64,000 nucleotides of DNA from a virus. Within the stretch, counting starts at the first letter, position 1, and each line of letters begins with the position of its first letter. Shown here piece after piece: positions 1 through 64,000 of this stretch. Both the position numbers and the translations under genes were made by a program. The notes beneath the pieces are model-generated. The model was not told the origin of the DNA and searched no databases. It saw only the letters and a list, made by a program, of their open reading frames with translations. Where the stretch lies: IMG/VR virus record IMGVR_UViG_3300021376_000028, positions 21,678 through 85,677 of that record; one strand, written 5' to 3'.

Positions 1-24
1 ATATACGGTTTCTCTCACTTCATC

Positions 25-64
25 AGCTGGCGTGCAGGTCGGCTTACTGACTTAAACGCCAACT
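25..64. repeat. Palindrome P1 (degenerate member of the TGGYGTTYAA-N14-TTRAACRCCA family)
   Basis: agctggcgtgcaggtcgg-ctta-ctgacttaaacgccaact; TGGCGT..ACGCCA spans 34 bp. Confidence 0.7.
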
Positions 65-113
65 CATACAGACAGGCCAGACTCTTATATTTAATATACA
101 CTTTCTCCCTGTA

Positions 114-153
114 AGCTGGTGTGTACGAGCTTTAGCGAAGTTAAACACCAGCT
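114..153. repeat. Palindrome P2
   Basis: agctggtgt...acaccagct perfect 9-bp arms; 34-bp core span. Confidence 0.85.
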
Positions 154-156
154 TTG

Positions 157-215
157 TTAGGTTCACCTAATAAAAAAAAGAGTGCGTTTTTGTGACGGTG
201 TGCTATTGTAAGGGC
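157..215 (+). promoter_or_regulatory. Cassette-1 promoter: TTAGG-N4-CCTAA dyad, A-tract, extended -10 (TGTGc TATTGT); leaderless start
   Basis: TATTGT at 204-209, 6 nt before ATG 216; block nearly identical to 802-861. Confidence 0.75.
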
Positions 216-599
216 ATGGCAAACAAGCCGGAGCCGACCGCTAAGGCGGAGGACAACAACAACAACCACAGCAAGCCGAGGAAGATCAACCTCTCCGAAC
301 TGAAAGGCACGGTGTCCCCACGGGGGCGCAAGCCCTACACGGACGAGGCGTTGGTCCAGTACCTCACGGAGATGGTGCAGGACGGAGAGGGCTTCGGACT
401 GGACGCTCCCTACGAGGTCACCGACGACATGCGCAAGGGCACCCCACGGGGCGTGAAGGCGCAGAACCGCGAGCGTGCCAAGTGGCGCAACCGCATCGTG
501 TCGGTGTGGACCTCCACGCTCGGCAGGGACAAGGGCGAGATCACCGTCGGGTGGACCTCGGAGCACGAGGTCACCGTCTCCCTCAGGAACAAGGCGTAG
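216..599 (+). CDS. GC-rich cassette protein 1, basic, RGRK motif, putative DNA-binding
   Basis: Strong GC3 bias; paralog of 862-1209 (KINLSxLKG, RGRK, EGFG, AKWRNRIVS, WTxxHE); start moved to ATG 216. Confidence 0.85.
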   Translation: MANKPEPTAKAEDNNNNHSKPRKINLSELKGTVSPRGRKPYTDEALVQYLTEMVQDGEGFGLDAPYEVTDDMRKGTPRGVKAQNRERAKWRNRIVSVWTSTLGRDKGEITVGWTSEHEVTVSLRNKA

Positions 600-609
600 A
601 AAGGCGCTG

Positions 610-656
610 AAAAACCGCAAGGTTTTTACCCTCCCCTTCGGGGGAGGTTTTTTTTT
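610..656 (+). terminator. GNRA hairpin plus UUCG hairpin with U-tract (intrinsic terminator)
   Basis: aaaaacc-gcaa-ggttttt, then cctcccc-ttcg-ggggagg-ttttttttt. Confidence 0.9.
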
Positions 657-667
657 GTCCAAAATCG

Positions 668-703
668 TTGGCGTTCAAGATGCTGAAGCATCTTGAACGC
701 CAA
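668..703. repeat. Palindrome P3 (17-bp perfect arms)
   Basis: ttggcgttcaagatgct-ga-agcatcttgaacgccaa; identical to 1277-1312. Confidence 0.95.
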
Positions 704-759
704 TCCGTACAAGGCAACGCTCTCTTCCCTTGAATACATTTTCCTAACTTACTTGAGAA

Positions 760-797
760 GCTGGTGTTCAATAGCTTTAGCTAAATTGAACACCAGC
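760..797. repeat. Palindrome P4 (13-bp perfect arms)
   Basis: gctggtgttcaat...attgaacaccagc. Confidence 0.9.
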
Positions 798-801
798 GAT
801 G

Positions 802-861
802 TTAGGCTGACCTAATAAGAAAATGAGTGCGTTTTCGTGCCGGTGTGCTATTGTAGGAGTC
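802..861 (+). promoter_or_regulatory. Cassette-2 promoter, extended -10, leaderless start
   Basis: TGTGc TATTGT (849-854), 7 nt before ATG 862; repeats the 157-215 block. Confidence 0.75.
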
Positions 862-1209
862 ATGGCAACCAATGCCGGTGACCGCAATAGCGGAACCAAC
901 CCAAAGAAAATCAACCTGTCCGACCTGAAAGGTAAGACTTCCCAACGGGGGCGCAAGCGGTACGCAAACGCCACCCTCACGGAATACCTGAGGGAAATGG
1001 TGAGCACACGGGAAGGCTTCGGTGTTCCCGAACTCTTGACCGTGACTCCCAAGACAACGGAGAAGCAAATCCAGACCCAAAAAGCAAAGTGGCGCAACCG
1101 CATTGTGTCATTGTTTGAGGAACTGAACTTCCCGGGACACCGCATCAGTATTTCGTGGACGGACGCTCACGAAATGGTCGTGGAAATGGTTGAGACCACC
1201 GAAGGCTGA
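862..1209 (+). CDS. Cassette protein 2, paralog of 216-599
   Basis: Shared motifs with protein 1; about 54% GC in sampled lines; start moved to ATG 862. Confidence 0.85.
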   Translation: MATNAGDRNSGTNPKKINLSDLKGKTSQRGRKRYANATLTEYLREMVSTREGFGVPELLTVTPKTTEKQIQTQKAKWRNRIVSLFEELNFPGHRISISWTDAHEMVVEMVETTEG

Positions 1210-1220
1210 GGAACCTTCAT

Positions 1221-1265
1221 AAAAAACGAAAGTTTTTTGACTCCGCTTCGGCGGAGTTTTTTTTT
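1221..1265 (+). terminator. GNRA hairpin plus UUCG hairpin with U-tract
   Basis: aaaaaac-gaaa-gtttttt; actccgc-ttcg-gcggagt-tttttttt; compensatory changes relative to 610-656. Confidence 0.9.
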
Positions 1266-1276
1266 GTCCAAAATCG

Positions 1277-1312
1277 TTGGCGTTCAAGATGCTGAAGCAT
1301 CTTGAACGCCAA
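1277..1312. repeat. Palindrome P5
   Basis: Identical to P3, inside a shared block of about 55 bp. Confidence 0.95.
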
Positions 1313-1390
1313 TACTTTTATCCTTATATTCATACTAATTGAGTATACTTACTTGGCAAGGTTAGACCCTCCTTATATATTCTCTTTTTT

Positions 1391-1436
1391 TAATTGGTGG
1401 TCGTTTAAGAAATGCATTTCTTAAACACACCAATTA
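1391..1436. repeat. Palindrome P6 (variant)
   Basis: taattggtg-gtc-gtttaagaaatgcatttcttaaac-a-caccaatta; 24-bp perfect core. Confidence 0.75.
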
Positions 1437-1861
1437 AATTAAATTTATTCTTTCCATTATGTTTAGTATTTTCTAATCGCATAGTCATCGCGTTGTCCTT
1501 TCAATTGCATTTCCTAATTGATTTGCGGGTGCCAATGGCTCACCAGTTCCCTTGGTAAATTCCCTCCTAATAGCCTGGGTGAATAGGTCACTCAAACCCC
1601 CCCTCAATTTACTCAACAAGAATAAAATTCATGGATCTGGATATAGATAGGGTTAGGAGCATAGGAATAGTCTCTTCATATAGCCGCCTTCCCCAAATTC
1701 ATATTAAAAATCGGGTTAAAAGCCCTCTATTCAACCTATATAAGAGGTATAAGAATAAACTTAATGGAAAATAGGCAAAATTTTTTTGTTTTTAATTAAA
1801 AGTTGACTATTTTAATCAACTTTTATTAAGTTTTAGAATAAAATTAACCGCTTTTTGGCAC

Positions 1862-1910
1862 AAAAAAAAGCCTTAAAAATAAGATTTCTCTTACTTCTAA
1901 GGCTTTCTTT
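1862..1910 (-). terminator. Intrinsic terminator ending the leftward accessory transcription
   Basis: Minus strand agccttagaagtaaga-gaaa-tcttatttttaaggct followed by a T-run. Confidence 0.8.
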
Positions 1911-2044
1911 GCTTAATTACAATGGATTCGGGGGTACACCATAGTAATTAATAAATATTGACGCAAATTGTCGTGCGTGTCGTCTCTTTATAATACTTTT
2001 GAAGCATATATCTTTTAAATATTTGCTTCTTGTTTTAGGGCTTC

Positions 2045-2206
2045 CTAAGACTCCTGGAGATCTTCCTCTATATCTCTAAAGAACTCTTCATTAGCCCAAT
2101 CCCATTTTTCTTTTTCCCGCTCATACCAAACAACATAACAACCCCAGCACATTGGGTTTGCCATATCTGATATATCACAGCATAAATCTTGCTTATTATC
2201 TATCAT
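2045..2206 (-). CDS. Small Cys-containing hypothetical protein (53 aa, not in ORF track)
   Basis: MIDNKQDLCCDISDMANPMCWGCYVVW...; ATGA overlap with the upstream gene. Confidence 0.55.
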   Translation of the reverse strand: MIDNKQDLCCDISDMANPMCWGCYVVWYEREKEKWDWANEEFFRDIEEDLQES

Positions 2207-2409
2207 TCCTTGTCTTCCTTTAAATAAGGGAATTCGTATTCAAAATTGTCAATCACTTGGCGGATTACATCCAATTCCATTTCCAGCCATGTAACATCAT
2301 TTTGATCCATATAGGGAATGTCCTGAGAGATCTTATTATAATAGTATTTTAAAGCGGCCACCGTATATTTGACCTCTTTGCCACTATAAAAAGTAACGCT
2401 CCCGCTCAT
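2203..2409 (-). CDS. Hypothetical protein
   Basis: ORF in operon; GAGGA RBS before MSGSV. Confidence 0.65.
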   Translation of the reverse strand: MSGSVTFYSGKEVKYTVAALKYYYNKISQDIPYMDQNDVTWLEMELDVIRQVIDNFEYEFPYLKEDKE

Positions 2410-2538
2410 AATTTCCTCTTTTTTTCTATTATTCACAGTCATGCCCGTATTGATATTCCTCTAAGGGAATATCCTTATTACACTCAGGGCAAGTAACAAG
2501 CCAACCAATATTCTCTAGAATTTCTTCTTCCTCATCCA

Positions 2539-2913
2539 TCACGTAAGCCTGTAACTTCTATCTTTTGAATAGTTTCCATCACCGTCAAATACCATCATAG
2601 CAAGATACTTTTCCCATTCCTCTGGAAAATAGGAATCATGAAGGAATTGCAAATCCCCAAGCATTTTAAAAGAAGTAGGACCCATGTCCCACTCAGGATT
2701 ACTCTTCTGGATAGCTTCTACAATGTAATCTCTATCATAAGGCTCCCCCTCAAAAAATGCCCTGTAATTATTATCGTGTATAAGAACACCTACGGCACAC
2801 TTTTTATTTTTGCTACCGCGATAACCGCACCCCCATTCATCATTCAGGCACTTTTCATTCTGCTGCAAGAGGTGATCTTTCACAATTTTAAAGATGTCTT
2901 GATCGTTCATCAT
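2539..2913 (-). CDS. Hypothetical protein, paralog family A (CxYRG...KCAxGxLI...SNPxW...LQxxHD)
   Basis: Motifs shared with 5859-6449 and 18843-19253. Confidence 0.8.
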   Translation of the reverse strand: MMNDQDIFKIVKDHLLQQNEKCLNDEWGCGYRGSKNKKCAVGVLIHDNNYRAFFEGEPYDRDYIVEAIQKSNPEWDMGPTSFKMLGDLQFLHDSYFPEEWEKYLAMMVFDGDGNYSKDRSYRLT

Positions 2914-3037
2914 GTTTTCTTTCCGTGTACACAAGTGTACACATTTGATATATTGTACTTAGGATAATTGGTATTAAATATTAGGTTTATTTTACAAGCC
3001 ACCAAGCTTGTAAATCTTAATTTCTTTTTTAAATAAC

Positions 3038-3298
3038 TTATAAAATTGGATAACCAGTGTTGTCATGGCAAGTATCAATATCGTTAAAGTTAATCTTTTT
3101 AACCAAGATTGCACCATCATCGTCCTTTATGTCAGAAATAAAAAGTTGTAAGGTATCAATAAAATCATCAAGATCACCCTCACGGAATGTACCGTTTGTT
3201 ATGGCAAAATCATGCAATTTTTGGTCATTTGCAAAACAAGCCAAACCGACAATGATAGTCCCAATATTTTGTTTACTTAAAAAAATGTTGTCAATCAT
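3038..3298 (-). CDS. Hypothetical protein
   Basis: ORF in the minus-strand operon. Confidence 0.65.
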   Translation of the reverse strand: MIDNIFLSKQNIGTIIVGLACFANDQKLHDFAITNGTFREGDLDDFIDTLQLFISDIKDDDGAILVKKINFNDIDTCHDNTGYPIL

Positions 3299-3512
3299 TA
3301 ATTACTCCAAGTCTTGATGCTTTTTCGTATAAAAAATTGTATTTATTTCTAAAGTGTGTGATCTTTGCGCTAAAAAGATTGCGCTCTTCTTCGCTCAAAA
3401 GATTTATTGATTCCTCCAGGGTACTGTCTAGTTGTTTAAGACTAGCTTGAAAAAGCTTAAGTTGTTGTCTTGCCTCTGTTTTTAAATTTTCTTGAGCATC
3501 ACCCTTCTCCAT
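3291..3512 (-). CDS. Hypothetical coiled-coil protein
   Basis: Start at MEKGDAQ, overlapping the upstream gene end. Confidence 0.6.
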   Translation of the reverse strand: MEKGDAQENLKTEARQQLKLFQASLKQLDSTLEESINLLSEEERNLFSAKITHFRNKYNFLYEKASRLGVIND

Positions 3513-3768
3513 CAGCAAGCATTCCTTCCTCAAGAGGAGTAATACTGATAGCGTTTCCCGTTTTGGTAATTCCAAACAAAGAGCCTGGACCATTACCCTC
3601 AGGATCACAAGAAGCATAAACTTTGCTACCATCACTAAATTCTAATACTGCTGTATTATTCCAACGAATATCATCCCAGCCTTCGTTTAGTGCTTCTTCT
3701 TCTGAAAGCCATCTCACATTCGTACACTTAAGGCCAACTGGATGCGCTACCTTTTTACTTTTCATCAT
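3499..3768 (-). CDS. Conserved-looking phage hypothetical protein (DPEGNGPG motif)
   Basis: ORF with a recognisable phage motif. Confidence 0.7.
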   Translation of the reverse strand: MMKSKKVAHPVGLKCTNVRWLSEEEALNEGWDDIRWNNTAVLEFSDGSKVYASCDPEGNGPGSLFGITKTGNAISITPLEEGMLADGEG

Positions 3769-3942
3769 ATTTTACTCAATTCTTAAATGTTTCTTCAAAT
3801 TTATTTATTAAAACTTCTATTGTATTTCTTGCATTATCATTCTTAGACAACCAATAATCTAACAATTGGTCGTCAAGTATAAGATTATGCAACCCAGACA
3901 ATAAAATCTTGACTTCTTCTTTGTTTAAATCAACAACACTTC

Positions 3943-4155
3943 TCACAGAGATTCCTTTGGAATACAGCGCCTAGTGCAGTATCCCAAATTATTTTCTTCG
4001 TAAAAGATACCGCGAATAAAACTTTTGTTACACATTGCACAAACAAAAGGATTCGCCCCCTTAGACCCATAAAATAAAGCTGCCTTACCAAGCAACTTTG
4101 GTCCTTTATCCCTATTTTGTCCAGCAATGGGTTTTGCTGGCTTCTTACTAGCCAT
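3943..4155 (-). CDS. Small zinc-finger protein
   Basis: CAMC...CTRRC. Confidence 0.65.
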   Translation of the reverse strand: MASKKPAKPIAGQNRDKGPKLLGKAALFYGSKGANPFVCAMCNKSFIRGIFYEENNLGYCTRRCIPKESL

Positions 4156-4636
4156 TTATTTCCTCTTTCTTTTTAATTGATAGCAATGACTCTTCAAATT
4201 CATTAGAAAACTGCTTATGAAATTTTCCAAGATTTGCTGGGGTCAAGTGCTTTAGGTCTTCTATATTTTTCCAACTACGGATCATTGAATTTATCCAGTC
4301 TGTCTTTTTACGCTCGGAAGCGTTTGTTGTAAGACCAAGATGTTGCATAACAACTTCAGGTGTCAAATACACATAAACCAAATCTGAATCTTTCACTTTG
4401 TAATAAAGATAAGTGTTTTCAAACTTTTCTAAAATCTTCCAACGAGCATAAAAATCTGCTGCAGTAGAAAACTTAATATTACCAATACAAACAGCCATAC
4501 TGCCGAATACTAAAGATTTAGTTATAGCATTTAAATCTGAGTATTCTTCGGGTGTATCTTGATTGTAGATTGTGAACAATTCGTTGGGGTTATCGTTAAA
4601 ATATTTAACCCTTTCGGCATTCCAAACTAGCGGCAT
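4148..4636 (-). CDS. Hypothetical protein
   Basis: 162-aa ORF with RBS. Confidence 0.75.
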   Translation of the reverse strand: MPLVWNAERVKYFNDNPNELFTIYNQDTPEEYSDLNAITKSLVFGSMAVCIGNIKFSTAADFYARWKILEKFENTYLYYKVKDSDLVYVYLTPEVVMQHLGLTTNASERKKTDWINSMIRSWKNIEDLKHLTPANLGKFHKQFSNEFEESLLSIKKKEEING

Positions 4637-4658
4637 TGATTTTCCTTTCTATTTTTAA

Positions 4659-4862
4659 TTATTCCTTGGGTTCTTCATAAAGGATATTATCAGAACGATA
4701 CATTCTTTCAGCTGCGTCCATAACAGGCTTGTAATAATACCAAATTTCTTCGTCTCCATTTGCAACACTCGGAGGAATAAGACCTTCCTCGTACAAATCA
4801 TCATATGCCATTTGTAGATAAAGCATTTGTGTTGCCTCGTCAGCATCGTCAAAGCGATTCAT
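4659..4862 (-). CDS. Acidic hypothetical protein
   Basis: ORF with RBS. Confidence 0.65.
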   Translation of the reverse strand: MNRFDDADEATQMLYLQMAYDDLYEEGLIPPSVANGDEEIWYYYKPVMDAAERMYRSDNILYEEPKE

Positions 4863-4871
4863 ATTGTTTCC

Positions 4872-5228
4872 TTACAGTTTTAATTTTTCTTTATATTGTA
4901 AAATAAGTTGTATCAAAGTATTTGGAACAGAAGTATCATAACCCTCTTCATCAACATCACCAATAAAAACCACATCACCGGCAATATAATCCCCAAGAAG
5001 AATTTTTTCCCCTGAGTCATACCACAAAGCTGTTGCAATTTTATTTTCTGGCAAATCGATTAATTTACCCTCATCATTTATATATGCAACAAATCGGAGA
5101 TTTCCAAAACGCACAACATCAAAGAATCCACCTACTGCTTCATTCATTTCCTGTGAAGTCCAAGTGCTTGTTATTTCTTCAATATCACCGCTTGCTGATA
5201 CAGTGATTGCTTTTTTATTTATTAACAT
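4872..5228 (-). CDS. DUF3846-like protein
   Basis: VGG..INDEGKLIDLPENKIAT..IAGDVVF motif. Confidence 0.8.
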   Translation of the reverse strand: MLINKKAITVSASGDIEEITSTWTSQEMNEAVGGFFDVVRFGNLRFVAYINDEGKLIDLPENKIATALWYDSGEKILLGDYIAGDVVFIGDVDEEGYDTSVPNTLIQLILQYKEKLKL

Positions 5229-5234
5229 AGTTAA

Positions 5235-5699
5235 TTAGTACAACCCGTACTCTTCTCTTTCTTCTTCTGTGACTATAGTAACAGTGCTATTGCTTCCCAT
5301 TGGAGCATCATGATGACTAAGAGAATAAGTGATTCTATCTTCTTCAATAAATCCCCGCATTATCCACTCGCTTTTGACACTCATTCCCCTGATCAAATCA
5401 ATAGGTTTGCGTGCATGAACAAAACCACTATGATTTCCATCCCATAAACGCAAATTAGAGATTTTCCAAAAACCTGTCTCGTTTTTGTCAAAAAGTTGAG
5501 AAGTAATATCAGTAAAAGCAAATATTGCTTCTTCCCAGCAACCAAAACAATCTTCTGAAGGAACAGATTCGTCTGTTTCTTCATCAAATGTAGTACATGT
5601 ACATACATTTGTAATCTCAAATGGAACTATTACGCTAAACATTGACATATCTAATAATCTTTCTTTTCTAATCGTCTTGAATTGTTCTATGATGCCCAT
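5235..5699 (-). CDS. Hypothetical protein (CTC..CFGC, HHDAPMG)
   Basis: ORF; true start may be downstream. Confidence 0.7.
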   Translation of the reverse strand: MGIIEQFKTIRKERLLDMSMFSVIVPFEITNVCTCTTFDEETDESVPSEDCFGCWEEAIFAFTDITSQLFDKNETGFWKISNLRLWDGNHSGFVHARKPIDLIRGMSVKSEWIMRGFIEEDRITYSLSHHDAPMGSNSTVTIVTEEEREEYGLY

Positions 5700-5853
5700 T
5701 AATGGGAATTAAAGATGCAACTTCACCAGTACCAAGAATGTCTGAAAATTTCTTATTGCCGAGAGCTGCTTCGTAAACTTGATCTATAGCATCAGTTACA
5801 TCTTTTCCAATAACAAAATAAGTTGCTGTAACTATTATGCTAAACTTTGGCAT
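5668..5853 (-). CDS. Hypothetical protein
   Basis: ORF in operon. Confidence 0.55.
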   Translation of the reverse strand: MPKFSIIVTATYFVIGKDVTDAIDQVYEAALGNKKFSDILGTGEVASLIPINGHHRTIQDD

Positions 5854-5858
5854 ATATG

Positions 5859-6449
5859 TTACTCTTTCCTTTCTAAAGTTTCATCTATTAATTCATTCAA
5901 AGTTTCATCATGGGCTACGACGAATGAACCATTATCATCAAATCTATCTTGCAGTGCAGCAAATTTCATTGGCCAATCTTCAACCTGATAGGTATCGTGA
6001 ACAAGTTGCATTAACCTAAGAAACATTAAAGAGTTTCTACTAATTTTCCAATTAGGATTTGATTTCTGAATTACCTCAATAATTTCAACACTACCAACAC
6101 TTTCTCCTTCTATTTCCTGGGTATAGTGAGTAGAATCAATAAGATGACCAATTGCACATTTCAAATTATAAGGAACGCTAAGGCACAAATCTCTGTAAAT
6201 ATCAGAGATTACTGCGTATTTTTCTTCCTCATCTGAATAAAAATGATCTTTTTCACATTGTTTCTCAGCTTCGTTATAACAATTTTCAAACACAGAATTG
6301 TTTCCACCTCTGTATCTGCATTCGCCATTTTCATCTGTTGACCTTGCGGCTTGCTCAGTCAAAGATTTAACTATGTGTTGATACGCATCTTTATCTGTTT
6401 CGATATGGTAATCTTTCATGTTTTCCTTATAAGAATCTGTGCTTGACAT
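5859..6449 (-). CDS. Family A paralog with an insertion of about 45 aa
   Basis: CRYRG ... KCAIGHLI ... SNPNW ... MQLVHD. Confidence 0.8.
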   Translation of the reverse strand: MSSTDSYKENMKDYHIETDKDAYQHIVKSLTEQAARSTDENGECRYRGGNNSVFENCYNEAEKQCEKDHFYSDEEEKYAVISDIYRDLCLSVPYNLKCAIGHLIDSTHYTQEIEGESVGSVEIIEVIQKSNPNWKISRNSLMFLRLMQLVHDTYQVEDWPMKFAALQDRFDDNGSFVVAHDETLNELIDETLERKE

Positions 6450-7072
6450 TATTCCTCGTCCGAAGCCTCATGTATTCTATTTAAAACAATTTCTCCGTTA
6501 ACAATTCTTCTCAATACATCTGCTACAACTTTGGGATGAATTGACCAAGTTGCGTTCAAAGTTGAATTAAAATTCAAACCATACTCAAGTTTAACCCGAT
6601 CCCAAACGGAACGATCTGTACAATAGAATAAATCCTGTGCTTCTGCTTCAGCCAAACCAAGATAATCTTTAGCCCAATTTCTCATCCAGCCAGAGTTAAT
6701 AATTGAATTAAGTTCTCCTAAATCATCAGCCAATGGTGCTTCTGCATAATAGTAACCATTCCATTTTGTGCGAGGCTCAACAATTTTATCTGTTGATTGT
6801 GAAAAATATGCATCAAGCACAGCCCAACCTGCAAGGCAAGCAGTTGTGCCACAATTCAATTTTTCTAAATTAGCGTCACAAATTTCGTCTAAAGTATCAG
6901 CCAATGATGCTTCTGCATAAATTTGATCAGCATTGATTGGAAATTCTTCTTGAAGTTCATATGTTTCGTCTTCTTCAAGAACTCTTCCAAACCAAGCACC
7001 CATGTGAAAATTTTCTGGGCTTGCGTTTTCAATTCTATTTGCTAATTGCAGCATTCTTTCTTTATTCATCAT
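6449..7072 (-). CDS. Hypothetical protein, paralog family B (FHMGxWFGR, CxTTACxAGWAV)
   Basis: Paralog of 18189-18764. Confidence 0.8.
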   Translation of the reverse strand: MMNKERMLQLANRIENASPENFHMGAWFGRVLEEDETYELQEEFPINADQIYAEASLADTLDEICDANLEKLNCGTTACLAGWAVLDAYFSQSTDKIVEPRTKWNGYYYAEAPLADDLGELNSIINSGWMRNWAKDYLGLAEAEAQDLFYCTDRSVWDRVKLEYGLNFNSTLNATWSIHPKVVADVLRRIVNGEIVLNRIHEASDEE

Positions 7073-7243
7073 TATCCTCAATTTCTTCAATATCTGTGCT
7101 TCTACCGGACCATTGAACTATTTTCATTATCAATGCCCAGTCTTCATTATCTATTTCTTCTTGTCTAAGAATTTGTGCTATCCAATCCATTGCTCCTTTG
7201 TCGTCTAAATTATCTGTACGATGAAACATTGCCATATGATTTC

Positions 7244-7651
7244 CTATATCTGTCTTGTATCAAAAGTATTTGATAAGGAAAAATTTAAGGTGAATGTATA
7301 TAAACTGTCATCAATTGGTTTTTGACATTGAGTTATATTCAACCACCAACCTTTGTCTTGAACAGTAATTTGCGTACTATCAGGAAGATCTGCAATCACC
7401 TTTTTTAATTCTCCAACAGTGATTGTTGGACTATATCTAGTTATTCCACATATCCATTTTTCATAAAGATTGTTTTTCCATGTTAAAAACTCTTCAAACC
7501 ATTCATCATAGCTTATACCAAAAGGATATTTTTCAGATGTATCTAAGTTAGAATCAAAATCTAATTCTTCATAAGTTTTTAAAAGTTGCGATAAAGGATT
7601 TGTTAAATCCTCAACACATTGATAAAACTTTTTTTGTTTCTCTGTTGTCAT
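7244..7651 (-). CDS. Hypothetical protein
   Basis: ORF; C-terminal TVGELKKVIADLP motif. Confidence 0.7.
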   Translation of the reverse strand: MTTEKQKKFYQCVEDLTNPLSQLLKTYEELDFDSNLDTSEKYPFGISYDEWFEEFLTWKNNLYEKWICGITRYSPTITVGELKKVIADLPDSTQITVQDKGWWLNITQCQKPIDDSLYTFTLNFSLSNTFDTRQI

Positions 7652-7669
7652 TTTTTCTCTTTCTGAAAT

Positions 7670-7957
7670 TTATTCAGTTGTGATTATTCCTGTCAGTTCG
7701 CTTAGCTTTTCAGTCCAATACCTACGAAATCCGTCAGGTACCGATTTGCTATAAAAACTTTGAGATGTAATATTGAAAAATGCGGTTAGCAATTTATTAT
7801 AATTTATTTCATTCCATTCATATTGCTGAATCATTTCTACTGTTTGTTTAACCTGCTTCTCTCCATTTAGAAAAACACGATAGTCGTCGCTTTGATGATA
7901 TTGCCAGTCTGTTTTGTTAATTATTATTGCTAACTCTATAATTTCTTCATTATTCAT
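7670..7957 (-). CDS. Hypothetical protein (DWxYxxSDD motif)
   Basis: AGGAG RBS before MNNEE. Confidence 0.7.
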   Translation of the reverse strand: MNNEEIIELAIIINKTDWQYHQSDDYRVFLNGEKQVKQTVEMIQQYEWNEINYNKLLTAFFNITSQSFYSKSVPDGFRRYWTEKLSELTGIITTE

Positions 7958-7974
7958 TTGCTCTCCTTGTTTAG

Positions 7975-8088
7975 TGGGAATGGTGAGAGTCGAACTCACT
8001 ATACAGTCTTTAGACTAACAGTTATCAACTTACCCTAGACAACAAAAGAAGACTGATAGTCGTACTATATACTCCGGCATACATTCCC
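7975..8088 (-). ncRNA. tRNA-like RNA (114 nt) without a canonical D or anticodon arm
   Basis: Acceptor GGGAATG/CATTCCC+A, T-arm GTGAG-TTCGACT-CTCAC, long central stem CAGTCTT/AAGACTG. Confidence 0.7.
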
Positions 8089-8190
8089 GTGGTGCATATT
8101 AATTAGACTTTGCTCATACATATGCAAGATATGAGATAACCTCAACCGGTAAGGTTTATTAATTAACAGGCTCTAATCAAACCTGTATCA

Positions 8191-8892
8191 TTATGGCGTT
8201 TCAATAGAAGGTATTTGGAAAGGATTATACTTTCTATATTCAGCCATAATAACATGTCGATATTTAGTGAAAAACTTGTTATAGTATTTATCAGTGACCG
8301 GTCCAAAATAACCGTCAACACCTACGCCTATAATTTTCTGTATTTGATAAACGTATTTGTTTTTATCTCCAAGTTTATATTCTCTAAATAAGATCTTTGT
8401 AGGAAATTTCTTAAAAAGAACTGGGTTCCCTACATTCTTTTTACATCCCCAGCCACCAAAACCAACAGCATCTCTAAAGAAAGGTTTTTTAGTTAACTTG
8501 TCTTTAAGAGTTATAAATTCATTTTTAGTTTGATATCCCTGAGTTGATATCCTGTTTGCAACAGTAATTTGCTCTTCAACCGTTGCTAATTCTGGCTTTT
8601 TAGCGAACTCTAATCCGCCAAAGTTAATCCATGTCTGAGTATATATGCCCAATCCACCGGACCATTTTCCTTTGTCTTTCCAGTCACCACCTGTTTCGCA
8701 TTGGGCCATCCTATGCCAATACAAATTCAATGCTCTGGGTTTTCCCCGCTCACTAAAAGCAGGGACGTTATTATTAATTTTAATTTCCTGTGTATTTGTT
8801 TCAGCCTCAACAGGAACTGGCTGATAATAAAAATAGCCGTTCGTGAGAACGGTTAAAAGTAAAAATCTTAATATAAGATGTTTAGTTTTCAT
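8191..8892 (-). CDS. Secreted Rpf-like lytic transglycosylase with a C-terminal peptidoglycan-binding-like domain
   Basis: N-terminal hydrophobic signal; WHRMAQCETGGDW, GGLGI..TW..FGG, ATVEEQITVANR; GVDGYFGPVT. Confidence 0.85.
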   Translation of the reverse strand: MKTKHLILRFLLLTVLTNGYFYYQPVPVEAETNTQEIKINNNVPAFSERGKPRALNLYWHRMAQCETGGDWKDKGKWSGGLGIYTQTWINFGGLEFAKKPELATVEEQITVANRISTQGYQTKNEFITLKDKLTKKPFFRDAVGFGGWGCKKNVGNPVLFKKFPTKILFREYKLGDKNKYVYQIQKIIGVGVDGYFGPVTDKYYNKFFTKYRHVIMAEYRKYNPFQIPSIETP

Positions 8893-9059
8893 TTTTCGCT
8901 CCTTAAAACTATTGGTTTTACGGAACATTAATATAGCCTACAAACTACATAACATTTCCGTATTAGCATACTGCTAAGGTTGCGAAACAAGATCACTGCA
9001 CATTAATAATGCTACTTGTTCCACAAGATTACTCTTATAGGCATCACCTCCAAATACAT

Positions 9060-9078
9060 AATTATAATTATATCAGAT
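9060..9078 (-). promoter_or_regulatory. Extended -10 promoter (TGaTATAAT)
   Basis: atctgatataatt; the same 13-mer lies upstream of 46846. Confidence 0.65.
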
Positions 9079-9084
9079 CTTAAC

Positions 9085-9161
9085 TGGTACCGCATATGGG
9101 AATTGAACCCATCAATGGATGTTTATAAGACATCTGTGTTCAACCAGCTCACCCATGCGGC
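9085..9161 (-). tRNA. tRNA-Ile(UAU), CCA encoded
   Basis: GCCGCAT/ATGCGGT acceptor; GATGT-CTTATAA-ACATC anticodon arm; ATGGG-TTCAATT-CCCAT T-arm. Confidence 0.9.
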
Positions 9162-9168
9162 TAGTTTA

Positions 9169-9531
9169 TTAGAACTCTAAATCTTCCTCTGGAAGACTAG
9201 CAATCAGATCACTAGCATATTCAGGTCTATTGCCAAGCATCTTCGCCAAGTTGATTCTTTTTTCGCTGTACTTTGAAACATACTCATCTATTGCTTCTCC
9301 CATCGGAACACCTTTTTCTTGTGCAATTTCTTGCATCATTAAAAACATATGAATCATACTTCCATAAACCAAACCTGGCAGGAAAACCGGATTTTTAGCG
9401 TCATCTTCTAGGGATGAGATAAGGAAAGTTATCATCTCTTGACTGTTTTCGGAACAGTGAGCATTGAAAAGTTGCATTATATAATCTGTAAAAAGAACAT
9501 CTTGATACTCTTTGAATGGCCGGATTTCCAT
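9169..9531 (-). CDS. Hypothetical protein, leaderless
   Basis: TGaTATAAT 6 nt upstream of the ATG. Confidence 0.75.
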   Translation of the reverse strand: MEIRPFKEYQDVLFTDYIMQLFNAHCSENSQEMITFLISSLEDDAKNPVFLPGLVYGSMIHMFLMMQEIAQEKGVPMGEAIDEYVSKYSEKRINLAKMLGNRPEYASDLIASLPEEDLEF

Positions 9532-9543
9532 GATCCAATTATA

Positions 9544-9612
9544 TCACCCGTTCAGGTATAATAAAAGTAAACCTATCGCAGATAATACAGTTATCAAGAA
9601 TAATTCTCTCAT
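9544..9612 (-). CDS. 22-aa hydrophobic peptide
   Basis: MRELFLITVLSAIGLLLLYLNG; GAGGT RBS. Confidence 0.4.
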   Translation of the reverse strand: MRELFLITVLSAIGLLLLYLNG

Positions 9613-9614
9613 TT

Positions 9615-9698
9615 TCACTCACCTCTTTGGGCAAGCAAGTGAGAGGCGATAATCGTTATTATTGTAATTGCTCCATAACCCATTATAAATTTGATCAT
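9615..9698 (-). CDS. 27-aa hydrophobic peptide
   Basis: MIKFIMGYGAITIITIIASHLLAQRGE; GAGGT RBS. Confidence 0.4.
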   Translation of the reverse strand: MIKFIMGYGAITIITIIASHLLAQRGE

Positions 9699-9760
9699 TA
9701 TGATTAACCTCACGCCCGTTGATTTATTTTTATTCTTAGCGCATTTTGAATACGCAATAG

Positions 9761-9832
9761 TAGGCCTATAGGGAATCGAACCCTACTCCACAGATTAAAA
9801 GTCTGTTGCTTCACCATCAAAGCTTTAGGCCT
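9761..9832 (-). tRNA. tRNA-Lys(UUU)
   Basis: AGGCCTA/TAGGCCT acceptor; ACAGA-CTTTTAA-TCTGT; TAGGG-TTCGATT-CCCTA. Confidence 0.92.
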
Positions 9833-9854
9833 TTAGACACGCATTCCCCTACAA

Positions 9855-10127
9855 AAAGATCTAACTGGACAATATATACTACTTGTAAGAACCGTCGTAT
9901 ATATTGTCGGATTAATATAATTTCTTATATTACGGGTTCACAGTCATCTACCGTATAAGCCAAAATCTTATACACAAGTCAAAGCTACAGGCTATTAGCT
10001 AGTTGTGTATTGCAGTTAGTTTTTACAAATAGTGTTTCTATGGACTGAAAGCAGTCCGTTCTGGGATCTCCCCAGACACTCATGCTATTTGTGAGATAAC
10101 TAACAACTTAGACTTTCCCCTAACTAC
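9855..10127 (-). ncRNA. Highly structured candidate ncRNA with RNase P-like motifs
   Basis: At least eight stems in a gap with no long ORF; GGGGAAAGUCUAAG pairs with UUUGGCUU leaving a bulged U. Confidence 0.6.
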
Positions 10128-10321
10128 TCTTCTCGCCAGATTGGATTTTGCAAGATAATAGGTTTATTTTGAACAGGTACAGGTTCAGAATTATTGGAAA
10201 ATAAACAAGGTTCAGACTCCATCATTAGTTTAATTAAAAGAGCTGGTTGAATATTTGTACCTTTAAGTTCTTCAGCCAGTTCTTTCTCATAAGCCTCTAT
10301 ATCGTGAGTGTCTCTATTCAT
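10124..10321 (-). CDS. Hypothetical protein
   Basis: ORF with GAGGA RBS. Confidence 0.6.
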   Translation of the reverse strand: MNRDTHDIEAYEKELAEELKGTNIQPALLIKLMMESEPCLFSNNSEPVPVQNKPIILQNPIWREE

Positions 10322-10355
10322 TTAGTGTTCCTCATAATTGTGAAAATTTGCATAA

Positions 10356-10733
10356 CTAATCATGAATAATTTTCCATCTGTCAACGCCTGGAATGAGACC
10401 TAATTTAGATCCATCATCCCAGGTGACAAATACTGTACCAGTATCATCTATATAATCTATTGTACCAAGATCACCATACTGAAGTTTGGTATATTCATCA
10501 TTGGTGCTAATAAGTTGAATTCTTTTACTAAGACAATGAAAAGATTGTTTTTCAATTTCAAATGGGTCCATTGTTACTCTTGCATCATTAAGAATCATTT
10601 GATCAGTTAATTCAGAGTATTTAAGAATCTGCAGACCACCATAGTTCTCATCCATGAATTGCTTGCAATTTTCAAGCGATCCAGAATAAAGAACAAACTG
10701 ATCTCCTATGTCAACTACGTAATAAATGCTCAT
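10356..10733 (-). CDS. DUF4314-domain protein
   Basis: GDLGTIDYIDDTGTVFVTWDDGSKLGLIPGVD. Confidence 0.8.
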   Translation of the reverse strand: MSIYYVVDIGDQFVLYSGSLENCKQFMDENYGGLQILKYSELTDQMILNDARVTMDPFEIEKQSFHCLSKRIQLISTNDEYTKLQYGDLGTIDYIDDTGTVFVTWDDGSKLGLIPGVDRWKIIHD

Positions 10734-10927
10734 TTCGTGCTAGCTTTATCTGAATTTGTAATCATTCCATTTAAAGAAACTTGCCAAGCCTTTTTGGTTT
10801 GTGGTTTTGTTTGCTTTAAATATTCCTGTTCAGTAGCGGACATTCCATATAAGATTGCTCCTGTGAACGCAATAAGAAAAATTACCGCTCCAAGGCAAAA
10901 CAAAGTTGTTTCAGACACAATCACCAA
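10730..10927 (-). CDS. Small membrane protein
   Basis: One TM helix. Confidence 0.6.
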   Translation of the reverse strand: MVIVSETTLFCLGAVIFLIAFTGAILYGMSATEQEYLKQTKPQTKKAWQVSLNGMITNSDKASTK

Positions 10928-11724: not shown

Positions 11725-11754
11725 ATTTTTACCTTTCTGTTGTTACTTATGTTG

Positions 11755-11827
11755 TGGGTATAATGGGATTCGAACCCATACTTTAAAGATTTTAAGTCTT
11801 TTGCCTCTGCCGTTGGGCTACATACCC
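11755..11827 (-). tRNA. tRNA-Leu(UAA) with a short variable arm
   Basis: GGGTATG/TATACCC+A; AAAGA-CTTAAAA-TCTTT; ATGGG-TTCGAAT-CCCAT. Confidence 0.9.
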
Positions 11828-16547: not shown

Positions 16548-16892
16548 TTAGCCTCCGTGATTTTTGATTAGGATTTGTGCTTTGATTGATTTGATTTCTT
16601 TATTCACCAGCATTTTGCAGAGATCAATGCTGAACTCTTCTACTGGATAAAGATTTGTTAATGCGTAGCGTTCTTTAGTAGAGAATGAACCCCAAATACC
16701 GAATGCCTCATCGTTCTCAATTGCATAATGCAAACACTCTGCAGCAACTTGACACTTACTACAAAACATTTTTGCCATTGCTTCATTCTTTCGGTTCAGT
16801 TTGCTGTCGCCAGTTTCTGAATAGAAAAAAAGAATATTAGTGCTTTTACATTCTGCTCTATCTTGCCATTGGTCAGTCAATATTGTCTCCAA
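16548..16892 (-). CDS. whiB: WhiB-family transcription factor
   Basis: WQDRAEC...AKMFCSKCQVAAECLHYA...GIWG. Confidence 0.92.
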   Translation of the reverse strand: METILTDQWQDRAECKSTNILFFYSETGDSKLNRKNEAMAKMFCSKCQVAAECLHYAIENDEAFGIWGSFSTKERYALTNLYPVEEFSIDLCKMLVNKEIKSIKAQILIKNHGG

Positions 16893-44622: not shown

Positions 44623-44854
44623 CCTCCTTCCAAGTGTAGTTTAGATATTCAAATTCAGAAATACCACCGTAAGTTCCATAAATGTCTCCAGAATTCCATG
44701 CATATGTAAAGCACTCTTTTCTTACTGAACATTCATTGCACACTTGAACGGCTTGTTCTATTTCTGATTTTTTGTATGAAAACCAAATACTTCTATCTTT
44801 GTGTTCAAAACACAAAGCTTTAGATTTCCAATCTTGCGTATTACTGCTTTTCAC
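44549..44854 (-). CDS. whiB: Second WhiB-family protein
   Basis: WKSKALC..AVQVCNECSVRKECFTYA..GTYGG. Confidence 0.88.
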   Translation of the reverse strand: MKSSNTQDWKSKALCFEHKDRSIWFSYKKSEIEQAVQVCNECSVRKECFTYAWNSGDIYGTYGGISEFEYLNYTWKEVENERQNNRTRSSSVLRKILQRIK

Positions 44855-54389: not shown

Positions 54390-54784
54390 TACACTTCCTC
54401 AAAAACCATGTTAACTCTATAATAATCACAACCTTGAGAAATTTCTCTTCTTATAAGAGATTCCGAATAAGATTGGAGATATACATCTATTGTTTCAGCA
54501 TTCTCATCTGCTGTAATTTTTATTTTCATTGGTATTTTATTTGCAATTGCTGTAAGCGACTTTAAATAATCCCGCCCTTTTCTATTGTCTATTGTTTTTG
54601 AAGAAAGAGATGGCAAATAATCCCATTGAAAAGAAAATGTTCTTTTAATAGACCTGTAATATCTTCTTTTGGAGCCAGAGTCCAGTTCAACTTCTGAGGC
54701 ATTAATGTTTATCACATCATTTATTTGTCGGCCCTGCTCGGTAATTTCTTGATTATTTAAAGACAAAAAACTTACAATTGTCAT
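54389..54784 (-). CDS. Distal-tail-like protein
   Basis: Immediately after the tape measure. Confidence 0.65.
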   Translation of the reverse strand: MTIVSFLSLNNQEITEQGRQINDVININASEVELDSGSKRRYYRSIKRTFSFQWDYLPSLSSKTIDNRKGRDYLKSLTAIANKIPMKIKITADENAETIDVYLQSYSESLIRREISQGCDYYRVNMVFEEV

Positions 54785-57700
54785 TACATTCCTCTATTCA
54801 AGCCATTATATGTTGTTATAACCCTTGATTCAAGACCGGCTTGTTTTTGGTTGGCTGGGACAACCTTTACATTGTATTCCCTCATCATTGAATTAAACCA
54901 TTCTTTTTCACCAATAAAGTTATCAACATAGAAGTTATAATTATGAGTACTTTCAGAATTTAGACTTTGTACTCCAACTCCTCCGTTTACAATTTTTGCA
55001 TATGTTGACATTGGTGGAACATACTTTGGTATTTCCGGGACAGAGATGTTGCTGACATAGCCACCGACTTTGTATTGTTTAGCCCCACTAAATATCCCTT
55101 TATTTATTCTTGAAAGGAGATCAATACCGTATTTATCAACTGATGCTTTGTTAATAACATATTCTCCGCCATGAAGAATTGCTGGCACTCCAAGGTCCGA
55201 CAGACCTGTGATCCGCCCCCCTTGGAAGCGTCCTTTTGCTCGGTACCCGTCTAAGTAAAGCTGTCTTTTTCTATAAACATCTTCTCCGCCGGGGAAAAAT
55301 TCTTTTCTTGATTTTGCATCCCAATCAAGCGGGTTACGAAGTGCCTTTTCCGATCTTGGCTTCCACCCCTCAAGTCTTAATTTTTTTGATTCATTTGGTT
55401 TTGCTATAGTAGTCCAGCCCCCAAGACCTACCGAATCTTTCTTAGTGTCAGCAGTTTTCTTGGTCCAGTTTTCGTCCATAAAATTAGAGTCCCAACCAAG
55501 AGCAGCCATTCTATTAGCAACCAGCATTTGTTGCAAAGGGGACGCTTGACCTGCTGTTTGTGGATTGCCGTATAGCAATGTACCGCCAAAGTCTTTCCAA
55601 GCTTTATTATTTATACTTAAGCCACCAGTTTTTTTCTTAGAAGTATAGCCAACTTTATCCGCGTCCTCTGCCCAGCCGTGCGCTGATTCTTTTGGCTGTA
55701 CCAAATTCCACCATTTTTCGGATAAACCACCGTTTTTCTTTTGTTTTTCAAATTCAGCTCTTTCTTGTGCAACTTGTTTGTTTTCCCCTATTTGTTTTCC
55801 AAATTCTTTTACAATTCCACCCTTAAAGAATCTTGGGATTAAACCACCAGTAAAACTTCCGTCAGGATCGGGCGGGAGACCTCTCTCGATCCGCAGCTGG
55901 TCTAGGAGTTCTTGTATCTCATCTTCTCTTGAACTTTGAATATATGCTATCTCTTCTGAACTCAAGACAAGGCGAATGTTGTTTAAGGTTCTGTTAACGT
56001 TTTCTCTCATCTCGTCCACGATCGCGGCCGTCTCTTCAATGGCTCTTCTTTCTGCTTCTCTATATGCCATTTCTGCATTTTCTAATTCAATGTCTCTCAT
56101 GGAGTCTGCATGCTGCTGAGTTTCAGATGTTTCAGCTCTTCTTGTGGAATTAGTTGCTATTCTTCTTGGCAGTGGTTGTGCCCATGGAGAAGAAGCACCA
56201 TCAGCGGCATCTGGATGTACTCTTGTATTTGTTGGAATCTTTTCTTGCAATGGTTTTAAGATTCCTCTAGCTTGGTTGCGATACTGCGCTAAGTGAGCAA
56301 CAACCGTTTCCACTCTTAATCTTTCATACATATCAGATAATGGATTCTTCTGTAGGGCAATATGACTGCCCCTCCAAAGGTCCAACATCTTTACTTTCCA
56401 GGGTATATTTAACCACGTTTGCGCAATATCGTTTTGGGTACCAGCGAGATCGCCCCCAGTTATTCGCCAGTCAACACCAGGCAACATCTCACGAACAGAC
56501 CGACCAAAATTCTCAGAAAAAGGATTTGTGCTACCTGATCTGGCCATAGTTATATTCCTAGGAACAATAACCCTATCAAAAAGAAATGCCATACTTTTGA
56601 GCATTGCTTTTAATGTAGAGCGGTTCGCCATCGGGTTCCTTGGGTCGTTTGCCGAATAGAGACCTGAAATTCCTATCTCATTCCCTCCAGTGTGATAACT
56701 CATAGAAATAAGTCTCCTAAACACTGCTTCAGACTGAGGGTCCGAAAGTAAGTTCATATCGCCCCTCGGGGCAAAGGCGGGATCCATATTCCTCAGGAAA
56801 TCTAGTATGTCTGTTCGTCTTTTTTCATCTAATAATTGAAAAACATTAAAGCCGTCAGGATCGGGGCCAAGACCAAAAACATATTCATTTCCTTTTTCTG
56901 CTTGTTTTATTATTCTTTTAATTTCATCTAAAGTCAATTCATTTGAGAACGGTATTGATCTACGAACAAATTCAGAAATTTTTTTTACAAGAACTGCGAC
57001 AGGATCTGTTTGATTTAACACATCTCTTATTCTTGTAGTAGAGTATAATTCATCAATTAATGCTCGACCTTCTTGATCTATCCGAAGACTTTCCCCGTAT
57101 TCTTGCCAAGTAAGAGGAATTCTTCTAGGTATACCTGGAATATCAGCCGCAGAAAGCGTCTGATTCGCTCCAGGCAAATTAGCCGAATACATCCGGTCAA
57201 GGGTTTGTCTAATTTCAGCAAGCCTATCTGAAGTAGTCAATGGACCATGAGAGCCAATCATTATTCCTCTTTCAACTTGGGTTGCAATCCTCATGGCTTC
57301 TTCTTGTTGTCTTAGCAACAACTCTCGCTGCTCCTCTAGCGCTCGTCTTTGTGGGCTTGTTGGTCTTGCTATGGGGTTCTTTAGTGTTGGTCTCAATTCA
57401 ACGGGCGTGAGGTCTCTCATCCTCCCTGGAGACAGTGGTCTATAGCCGAATGCTGGGAAACCCATCAGAGGATCTGAGCGTTGGCTGGGTGATTGCGGAC
57501 GTTGATAAATCCACCGATCAATTCCCAGATAGTCGTCCACGACGCGCCTATAATTGGAAGTTATATTTGTGTCTAATATTGGATTATTGAGACCAAAATA
57601 AGACCTAAAATTATTTGGTATATTTTTTATATAATTAGTAAAATTAGAATATTTTTGTATTAAAAGACTGCCAAGAGTTCGGCTTACAAACCTTTCAGCA

Positions 57701-63999: not shown

Positions 64000-64000
64000 T

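Follow-up and report, generated by a model that had tools for sequence, protein, structure and literature searches.

The host-takeover module of phage SPO1 and the pre-early region of phage T5 each assemble, at one end of the genome, a large number of small genes with unknown functions, equip them with multiple strong promoters and terminators, and are thought to act first in infection. T4-type myoviruses carry comparable elements known as promoter-early stem-loops (PeSLs) (Arbiol et al. 2010, PMC2839356; Comeau et al. 2014, PMC4122927). A third point of comparison is offered by the Streptomyces phages of cluster BE, whose direct terminal repeat measures about 11 kb (10.8 kb in phage NootNoot) and whose GC content lies about 20 points below that of their hosts (Hughes et al. 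2018, PMC5764925). In this study, we analyzed an array of gene cassettes in the IMG/VR virus record IMGVR_UViG_3300021376_000028. The window, that is the whole stretch of 64,000 nucleotides under analysis, corresponds to bases 21678-85677 of this 85,677-bp record, which belongs to the linear class and has a CheckV completeness of 82%. The array consists of nine cassettes with ten genes and occupies 5.5 kb (genome 17.55-23.1 kb, counted on the full record), so that window positions 25-1436 represent its right end. We regard it as probable that the array is an early-gene set of an actinophage, written in host-style codons, whose cassettes have been swapped as units between related phages.

A sequence-only reading of the window had described a unit of about 640 bp that occurs twice and had suggested that further units lie to the left. 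This continuation is real: seven more promoter-bearing units were found left of the window (genome 17.6-21.7 kb), giving nine in total, and the promoter block (GAGTGCGTTT..TGCTATTGT) is present in nine copies with at most three substitutions each. Across the array the GC content is 51-59%, compared with about 35% in the genome, and the step of about 20 points is abrupt. The earlier statement that the two visible units hold the only credible plus-strand genes of the window is approximately correct; strictly, a few other small plus-strand open reading frames (ORFs) exist. The same reading had missed the actinophage carrier, the array-wide shift in GC and codons that recurs in relatives, the 12-copy family of a 36-nt inverted repeat, and the paralogue pair that forms the end-piece of the array.

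We aligned the ten intergenic stretches of the array (228-298 nt each) and found a common frame, in which a post-stop hairpin, an AT box (TTKARTATRC), the 36-nt inverted repeat, a dyad, the box GAGTGCG and the extended -10 element TGCTATTGT follow one another in this order. The terminator of units 1-7 is a highly stable G/C stem that lacks a U tract (fold z = -3.4 to -6.0), and that of units 8-9 is a UUCG hairpin followed by T8-9. The dyad GTTAGG-N4-CCTAAY occurs in 9/9 units, with its centre 40.5-42.5 nt before the -10 element. Units 1-7 have a leader of 35-46 nt that opens with a 5' hairpin (GUCGG..CCGAC), in which compensated changes are seen, and continues with the Shine-Dalgarno (SD) sequence GGAAAGGA. 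In u8 and u9, the genes of cassettes 8 and 9, the -10 element lies only 6-7 nt before the ATG or GTG, a leaderless geometry that is also found in five units of L015, a related phage in IMG/VR, and in units 8-9 the ATG sits at the expected transcription start. The leaderless build with a T-tract terminator, as first proposed from the sequence, thus describes units 8-9 but not units 1-7, which have a leader, an SD sequence and no U tract. The geometry from box to -10 is kept in L015 and in two further relatives, L053 and L056, with the upstream box 20 nt before the -10 element.

These promoters have an extended -10 but lack a canonical -35; they appear to be of an actinobacterial kind and would be used by the host RNA polymerase, while the 16-bp dyad is probably the operator of one common regulator. 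An actinobacterial setting fits four features of the frame, namely the extended -10 with weak -35, the leaderless starts, the hairpins without U tracts and the SD sequences. In the mechanism that we propose, each cassette would be an autonomous and insulated expression unit that holds its small orphan gene or genes in a standard frame; the strong hairpin after the gene would end the preceding transcript, and the 5' end of the new transcript would carry either a stabilizing hairpin with an SD sequence or a leaderless start. Two further observations touch these elements. Beyond the array, at window 2035-2048 and at the 3' end of the first minus-strand gene, the exact TTAGG-N4-CCTAA dyad occurs a tenth time; its membership is uncertain, as it may be a further site of the same regulator or a chance occurrence. 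At the left edge of the array, left of the window, we found a promoter-like box (AAAATTGAGTACATATCC ... TTTATATA; genome 17555-17600, L004:1379-1424) that is kept in L015 and L056. In this phage an AT box overlaps the -10 of that box, which raises the possibility that the AT boxes are weak upstream promoters transcribing the inverted repeat.

The right end of the array shows this anatomy in detail, with all features on the plus strand. An orphan half-frame (window 1-113) follows cassette 7 and breaks just 3' of a repeat; by frame alignment it starts with the end of an AT box that begins at genome 21670 and a CT-rich spacer (1-24), followed by an orphan copy of the inverted repeat (27-62, earlier called P1), which belongs to the 12-copy family and has neither a dyad nor a promoter behind it. 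The frame of cassette 8 contains the AT box TATATTTAATATACAC (86-101, placed by frame alignment), which resembles a TTGAGT upstream box, then a covarying copy of the 36-nt inverted repeat (116-151), the operator-like GTTAGG-N4-CCTAAT dyad (156-171, core TTAGG-N4-CCTAA at 157-170), an A-tract (172-179) and the promoter core (180-209), made up of GAGTGCG at 180-186 and the extended -10 TGCTATTGT at 201-209. The leaderless gene u8 (216-599, 127 aa, GC content at third codon positions (GC3) 0.92) begins with an ATG 6 nt after the -10 element. It is followed at 610-656 by an A5CC-GCAA-GGT5 hairpin and a CCTCCCC-UUCG-GGGGAGG terminator with T9 (fold of 600-712, z = -6.3), and then by a terminal copy of the inverted repeat (668-703), which is a perfect 17-bp palindrome.

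Cassette 9 is built in the same order, with the AT box TTGAATACAT (730-739, by frame alignment), the inverted repeat (761-796), the GTTAGG-N4-CCTAAT dyad (801-816, core TTAGG-N4-CCTAA at 802-815) and the promoter core (825-854; GAGTGCG at 825-831, TGCTATTGT at 846-854). Its leaderless gene u9 (862-1209, 115 aa) is a paralogue of u8 with 43% identity and starts with an ATG 7 nt after the -10 element. An A6C-GAAA-GT6 hairpin and a UUCG terminator with a T run follow (1221-1266, fold z = -8.6), and another terminal copy of the repeat (1277-1312), again a perfect 17-bp palindrome. The last AT box, TTGAGTATAC (1339-1348), has no promoter after it, and an AT-rich palindrome with the same outer core (TTGGTG...CACCAA, 1391-1438) marks the right edge of the array. 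All the elements listed in the first description of the unit, including dyads, A-tract, -10 elements, hairpins, UUCG terminators and palindromes, were therefore present at their places. The block of about 55 bp reported as identical proved to be 58 nt long, with 647-704 and 1256-1313 matching at 100%, and a second direct repeat (113-210 and 758-855) matches at 85% over 98 nt. Between cassettes 8 and 9 the global nucleotide identity amounts to 61% in the coding sequences, compared with 75% in the frames upstream of the genes and 81% in those downstream, which bears out the claim that the non-coding frames are better conserved than the payload genes inside them.

The 36-nt inverted repeat occurs in 12 copies, each of exactly 36 nt and all within the array; nine stand before promoters, one is the orphan, and two are the perfect palindromes after genes 8 and 9. 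Its ends read CTGGYGT...ACRCCAG. The outer pairs are invariant, the inner stem is variable, and a 2x2 internal loop is kept in most copies. Changes on both sides were observed in 9/16 pairs, and 82% of the cells are paired, compared with 74% in shuffles (0/500) and 34-37% when the partner column was slid. The non-Watson-Crick cells outside the internal loop comprise 12 G-T and a single A-C. This asymmetry points to a hairpin formed by the plus strand in single-stranded form (RNA or DNA) rather than to a duplex binding site, and since the copies are related to one another, we take it as an indication and not as proof. The repeat of L015 shows the covariation pattern in part, while an Rfam scan gave nothing near a gathering score.

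The alternative view of this element is that the repeats and dyads are mainly duplex protein-binding sites, of a ParB-like or WhiB-type kind, used for silencing, partition or shut-off. It can draw on the outer half-sites GGYGT...ACRCC, a core that is common to this phage, L015, L053, L056 and L011, on the ParB-like protein and the two WhiB proteins that the phage encodes, and on the frames of NootNoot, in which short perfect palindromes occur together with GGACA repeats, as is typical of operators. We nevertheless consider it unlikely, because the inner stems vary and yet remain complementary, and because strand-asymmetric mismatches are unexpected for a duplex site. This view concerns the role of one element only and would be compatible with the reading of the locus as an early cassette array.

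The carrier of the array was identified from its other genes. Two WhiB genes scored above the Pfam cut-off (window 16659-16868 and 44648-44830, both on the minus strand). Genes of this family are characteristic of actinobacteria and of their phages, and the phage WhiB proteins could retarget the host SigA. Compared with the cluster BE phages, the major capsid protein is 51% identical and DnaE is 38% identical. The gene order mirrors that of NootNoot, with the array and ThyX and, divergently, glycosyltransferase, ribonucleotide reductase, portal, protease and major capsid protein, then the tape measure protein, and later helicase, primase and DnaE. Judged by its capsid and replication genes, gene order and actinobacterial hallmarks, and leaving family rank apart, the carrier is an uncultured freshwater actinophage, a distant, Stanwilliamsviridae-like relative of the Streptomyces cluster BE phages.

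Several side observations concern the carrier. An ORF of more than 3071 aa (window 54784-64000, minus strand) runs off the contig end and has weak tape-measure matches. The record ends at about 85 kb with 82% completeness, as does its relative G001, perhaps at the same assembly break. Left of the array lies a 213-aa gene (L095:16314-16955, phrog_3704) labelled as ferredoxin or PurM neighbour, with 33-55% identity to counterparts in cyanophage and pelagiphage myoviruses; most of the loci retrieved through it do not come from relatives, many being unrelated myoviruses. Two early ideas were dropped: hairpin promoters of the N4 type with a virion RNA polymerase, as the giant protein matches tape-measure families and not RNA polymerase, and a cyanophage or crAss-like identity, given the WhiB and capsid results.

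The kinship with the BE phages gives the array a counterpart in culture. In NootNoot (MF347636), the terminal repeat (1-10787) holds 21 small genes, each with a terminator, a TGTCCGGnCCGGACA palindrome, a TAGACT -10 element, a 5' hairpin and an SD sequence, and the GC3 of these genes is 0.75, compared with 0.50 in the core genes. The cassette build and the GC island are therefore traits of the lineage. In the papers searched, the BE terminal repeat is characterized only as "20 to 25 ORFs including lsr2-like", and neither the cassette build nor the GC shift is described. Lsr2 was not found in the lake-phage record. The terminal-repeat array of NootNoot occupies the syntenic place of the array in the lake phage. 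The lake-phage array is thus the positional counterpart of the BE terminal-repeat array, and on this ground it is most likely an immediate-early or host-takeover gene set. Its putative status as the first-expressed region is based on this synteny together with codon usage and promoter form.

The codon usage of the cassette genes is sharply different from that of the bulk genes. As a share among synonymous codons, TTA accounts for 27% in bulk genes and 0% in cassette genes, ATA for 24% and 4%, and AAA for 70% and 15%, respectively. The phage encodes three tRNAs, all on the minus strand, for Ile-UAU (window 9085-9161), Lys-UUU (9760-9832) and Leu-UAA (11754-11827), and these read exactly the codons that the cassette genes avoid and the bulk genes use. 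The host-like codons need no phage tRNA-Leu(UAA), -Ile(UAU) or -Lys(UUU), so the cassette genes could be translated ahead of the phage tRNAs. We infer that selection may have favoured codons served by the tRNAs of the host, at a stage when those of the phage do not yet exist. Neither a T7-like phage RNA polymerase nor a sigma factor was found in the record, in which the one sigma-70 r2 match is sub-threshold and lies inside a glycosyltransferase gene; together with the avoidance of phage-tRNA codons, this would indirectly support first transcription by the host RNA polymerase.

A different origin for this contrast would be that the array is a GC-rich island, recently acquired from the host or from a GC-rich phage, and neither ancestral nor specially early. 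The abrupt GC step, a codon use unlike the rest of the phage and payloads without relatives all speak for such an event. The comparison with other phages makes it quite improbable. The same place, architecture and closing protein family recur in five related phages, a homologous arrangement exists in the cultured BE phages, and host homologues were not found. L015 has the same codon contrast between bulk and cassette genes, and in L053 and L056 the GC3 of the array is 0.44-0.45, compared with 0.25 in the bulk genes. The GC3 of the u8/u9 family varies from 0.38 to 0.92 between phages and tracks the array in which the genes reside; therefore, the composition evolved in place and bears no mark of recent import.

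The payloads themselves are small. The ten array genes encode proteins of 58-131 aa with a GC3 of 0.67-0.92, one gene per cassette and two in one case. None of the ten proteins had a match in Pfam, PHROG or PADLOC, and searches covering 5.8 billion clusters returned, for u3, u7 and u8, no relatives outside the clusters to which they belong. A search of IMG/VR for u8 by peptide patterns was negative as well. The product of u1 resembles a two-helix membrane protein, and u5a carries a CxxC...C ribbon-like motif. The only paralogues among the payloads are u8 and u9. Searching 1.84 billion proteins with a profile of their family retrieved about 50 cluster representatives, almost all with a length of about 100 aa, and the family closes the array in this phage and in L011, L015, L053, L055 and L056, with two or three genes each. 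This tandem pair or triplet is the conserved end-piece of the array.

For the u8/u9 family, a first structure model had a predicted local distance difference test (pLDDT) score of 69, and a model built from 32 sequences reached 85.7. The latter predicts an N-terminal arm that is basic and extended (KINLSxL..RGRK), together with a small alpha/beta domain. Foldseek found no significant match in the PDB or BFVD. VIA-align gave weak matches (Z <=5.8) to rows for R3H, IF3-C, Smr and Stn1, which may only reflect a common arrangement. A PDB profile search and a Pfam scan of the 32 members returned nothing, and an atlas search returned viral hypothetical proteins only. The model offers, as a lead only, that the family may bind nucleic acid.

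A distant DNA search of a phage collection with the two window units gave no match, the exact promoter-block pattern had no match in IMG/VR, a looser pattern of dyad plus box had four matches that were all unrelated and attributable to chance, and nhmmer with a frame profile recovered one L015 unit only. The five IMG/VR relatives L011, L015, L053, L055 and L056 are syntenic with this phage from the portal gene to the 213-aa flank gene. In each of them an array occupies the corresponding position and keeps the succession of frame elements, with different payloads in like frames. Apart from the u8/u9 family, no payload is common to this phage and these relatives. The clearest pair is L053 and L056, whose flanks are 85-89% identical; they have two cassettes in common while the rest differ, and the high-scoring segment pairs end near promoter and terminator. 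Relatives thus combine a conserved frame architecture with different payload sets, in line with the exchange of payloads that the sequence-only reading had envisaged, but ongoing shuffling is not seen in this population, where order and content are the same in two independent contigs. Shuffling would therefore be slow or rare. Over evolution, cassettes would be gained, lost and replaced as units, with homologous recombination in the repeated frames as the likely route, as with PeSLs; since no recombinase was found, we infer this route from the frames.

Some loose ends within the lake data are worth recording. Contigs of four lake runs break at frames, and contigs in two runs leave the reference exactly at the palindrome end (L009:4325) and re-enter inside u9; these are hints, and hints only, of variant arrays. 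A homologue of u5b with about 89% identity (L009:2321-2546 = genome 20376-20601) was found on contigs of the lake runs X20, X19 and X6, in another neighbourhood and with similarity that begins and ends at the ORF ends, which points to a co-occurring sister phage.

The unit structure also invites comparison with integrons, in which small unrelated genes likewise alternate with imperfect inverted repeats that are conserved more in structure than in sequence. If the array were an integron-like or other site-specific cassette system, its repeats would be recombination sites folded from a single strand, like attC. The invariant outer pairs, the conserved 2x2 loop, the variable inner stem with compensatory changes and the plus-strand G-T wobble would agree with this, as would the orphan half-frame that breaks just 3' of a repeat and the loose contig ends at L009:4325. 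However, in the 85.7 kb of the record none of the hallmarks of integrons, an IntI-type recombinase, promoterless cassettes expressed from a common Pc and attC core sites (RYYYAAC/GTTRRRY), was found. The integrase profile PF00589 matched nothing in the record, which lacks about 18% of the genome, with the control positive in 14/14 genomes. In contrast to integron cassettes, those of the array all come with a promoter and a terminator of their own, the ends CTGGYGT...ACRCCAG differ from attC R boxes, the repeat lies between terminator and promoter instead of solely at the cassette 3' end, and the order is fixed in independent assemblies. Without an integrase in the 85.7 kb of the record or attC cores in the repeat, and with a promoter per cassette, the array is not an integron, and an integron-like mechanism has very little chance of being correct.

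Repeats do break short-read assemblies, and contigs in four runs end at frames, but an assembly artefact or chimeric contig, one of the conditions under which the sequence-only reading would have failed, has practically no likelihood, as two independent metagenome contigs from other samples, spanning 5.6 kb and 4.0 kb including the right flank, are colinear with the array at 99.9% identity, 20 lake-water runs contain 89-98% of the sampled array words, and related phages have the same build.

Against the interpretation as an early array exchanged by units, several points must be counted. The array was not found in any RNA run in a run search by sampled words, the promoter has no recognizable -35 (the position reads AGTGCG), and a simple sigma-70 consensus scan calls none. 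No terminal repeat is seen in the record, which IMG/VR classes as linear, and the depth over the array, taken from contigs, is only about 1.2-1.6x that of the flanks and unreliable. The breakpoints of the u5b homologue in the sister phage lie at ORF ends and not in frames, and order and content of the array are fixed within the population, as the two contigs and the 20 runs show. The raised GC could also result from biased gene conversion in a recombining repeat and not from translational selection. With these points taken into account, the early cassette array of an actinophage is still, in our judgement, the probable explanation.

A bolder version goes further. The host-codon early array would be lineage-wide and actively maintained, with the BE phages included, and the 36-nt hairpin, as plus-strand RNA or single-stranded DNA, would be bound by the u8/u9 family, the one array product that is conserved, in an autoregulatory or processing circuit that marks the borders of exchange. 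We hold this version to be rather doubtful. If it is true, the genome would be written in two dialects, with immediate-early proteins made before the phage tRNAs.

The interpretation as an early cassette array has consequences of its own. It would extend the shuffling of early genes by promoter and terminator units from T4-type coliphages to abundant freshwater actinophages and their cultured Streptomyces relatives, with a much richer frame. It provides a testable case of a genome that uses two codon dialects, one resembling that of the host in the presumed first genes and one dependent on phage tRNAs in all others. In addition, a structured repeat and a family of small proteins that always co-occur are defined by it. 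The orphan genes probably serve host takeover or counter-defence. As BE phages with the same build are in culture, timing, promoters, the role of the repeat and the functions of the orphan genes are accessible to bench work.

The PeSL and SPO1 analogies of the sequence-only reading pointed to the right neighbourhood. By analogy, the array appears to work like the PeSL cassettes and the terminal early modules of SPO1, T5 and the BE phages. With PeSLs it has in common composite terminator and promoter modules placed before small orphan genes and better conserved than those genes, in nine frames each a stem-loop terminator followed by a promoter-like core; in both cases the modules cluster in a hyperplastic region, and it is entire gene modules that distinguish related phages. 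PeSLs have a sigma-70 consensus promoter (TTGACA-N17-TATAAT) and reside in T4-type myoviruses, whereas the array has TGCTATTGT with AGTGCG at the -35 position and a carrier related to the BE siphoviruses, with a tape-measure-like protein of more than 3000 aa. Because the -35 and the phage type do not fit, the array is not a member of the PeSLs. Its frame of 230-300 bp also contrasts with the short stem-loop and sigma-70 promoter of a PeSL, as it adds the covarying 36-nt repeat, the invariant 16-bp dyad, an upstream box in place of the -35, and 5' hairpins or leaderless starts, and all cassettes here form one contiguous array, strongly recoded in GC and codons, in a siphovirus-type actinophage.

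The array of NootNoot and the BE phages comes from a related lineage and has a mirrored order around ThyX, single-gene units and raised GC3. The motifs differ: NootNoot has TGTCCGGnCCGGACA and TAGACT where the lake phage has the 36-nt repeat, the TTAGG dyad and TGCTATTGT. The two arrays have no payload in common, and a member of the u8/u9 family was not found in the first 60 kb of NootNoot. The terminal repeat is proven in NootNoot and putative here. The modules of SPO1 and T5 are similar in being clusters of many small orphan genes with multiple promoters and terminators, and as in a host-takeover module, nearly every small gene of the array has a promoter and terminator of its own. They differ from the array in that here each gene sits in a near-identical long frame with extra structured elements and the whole forms a compositionally distinct block. 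Compared with all these systems, the distinctive additions of the array are its long multi-element frame, the covarying and strand-asymmetric repeat, the array-wide recoding and the conserved gene family that closes it.

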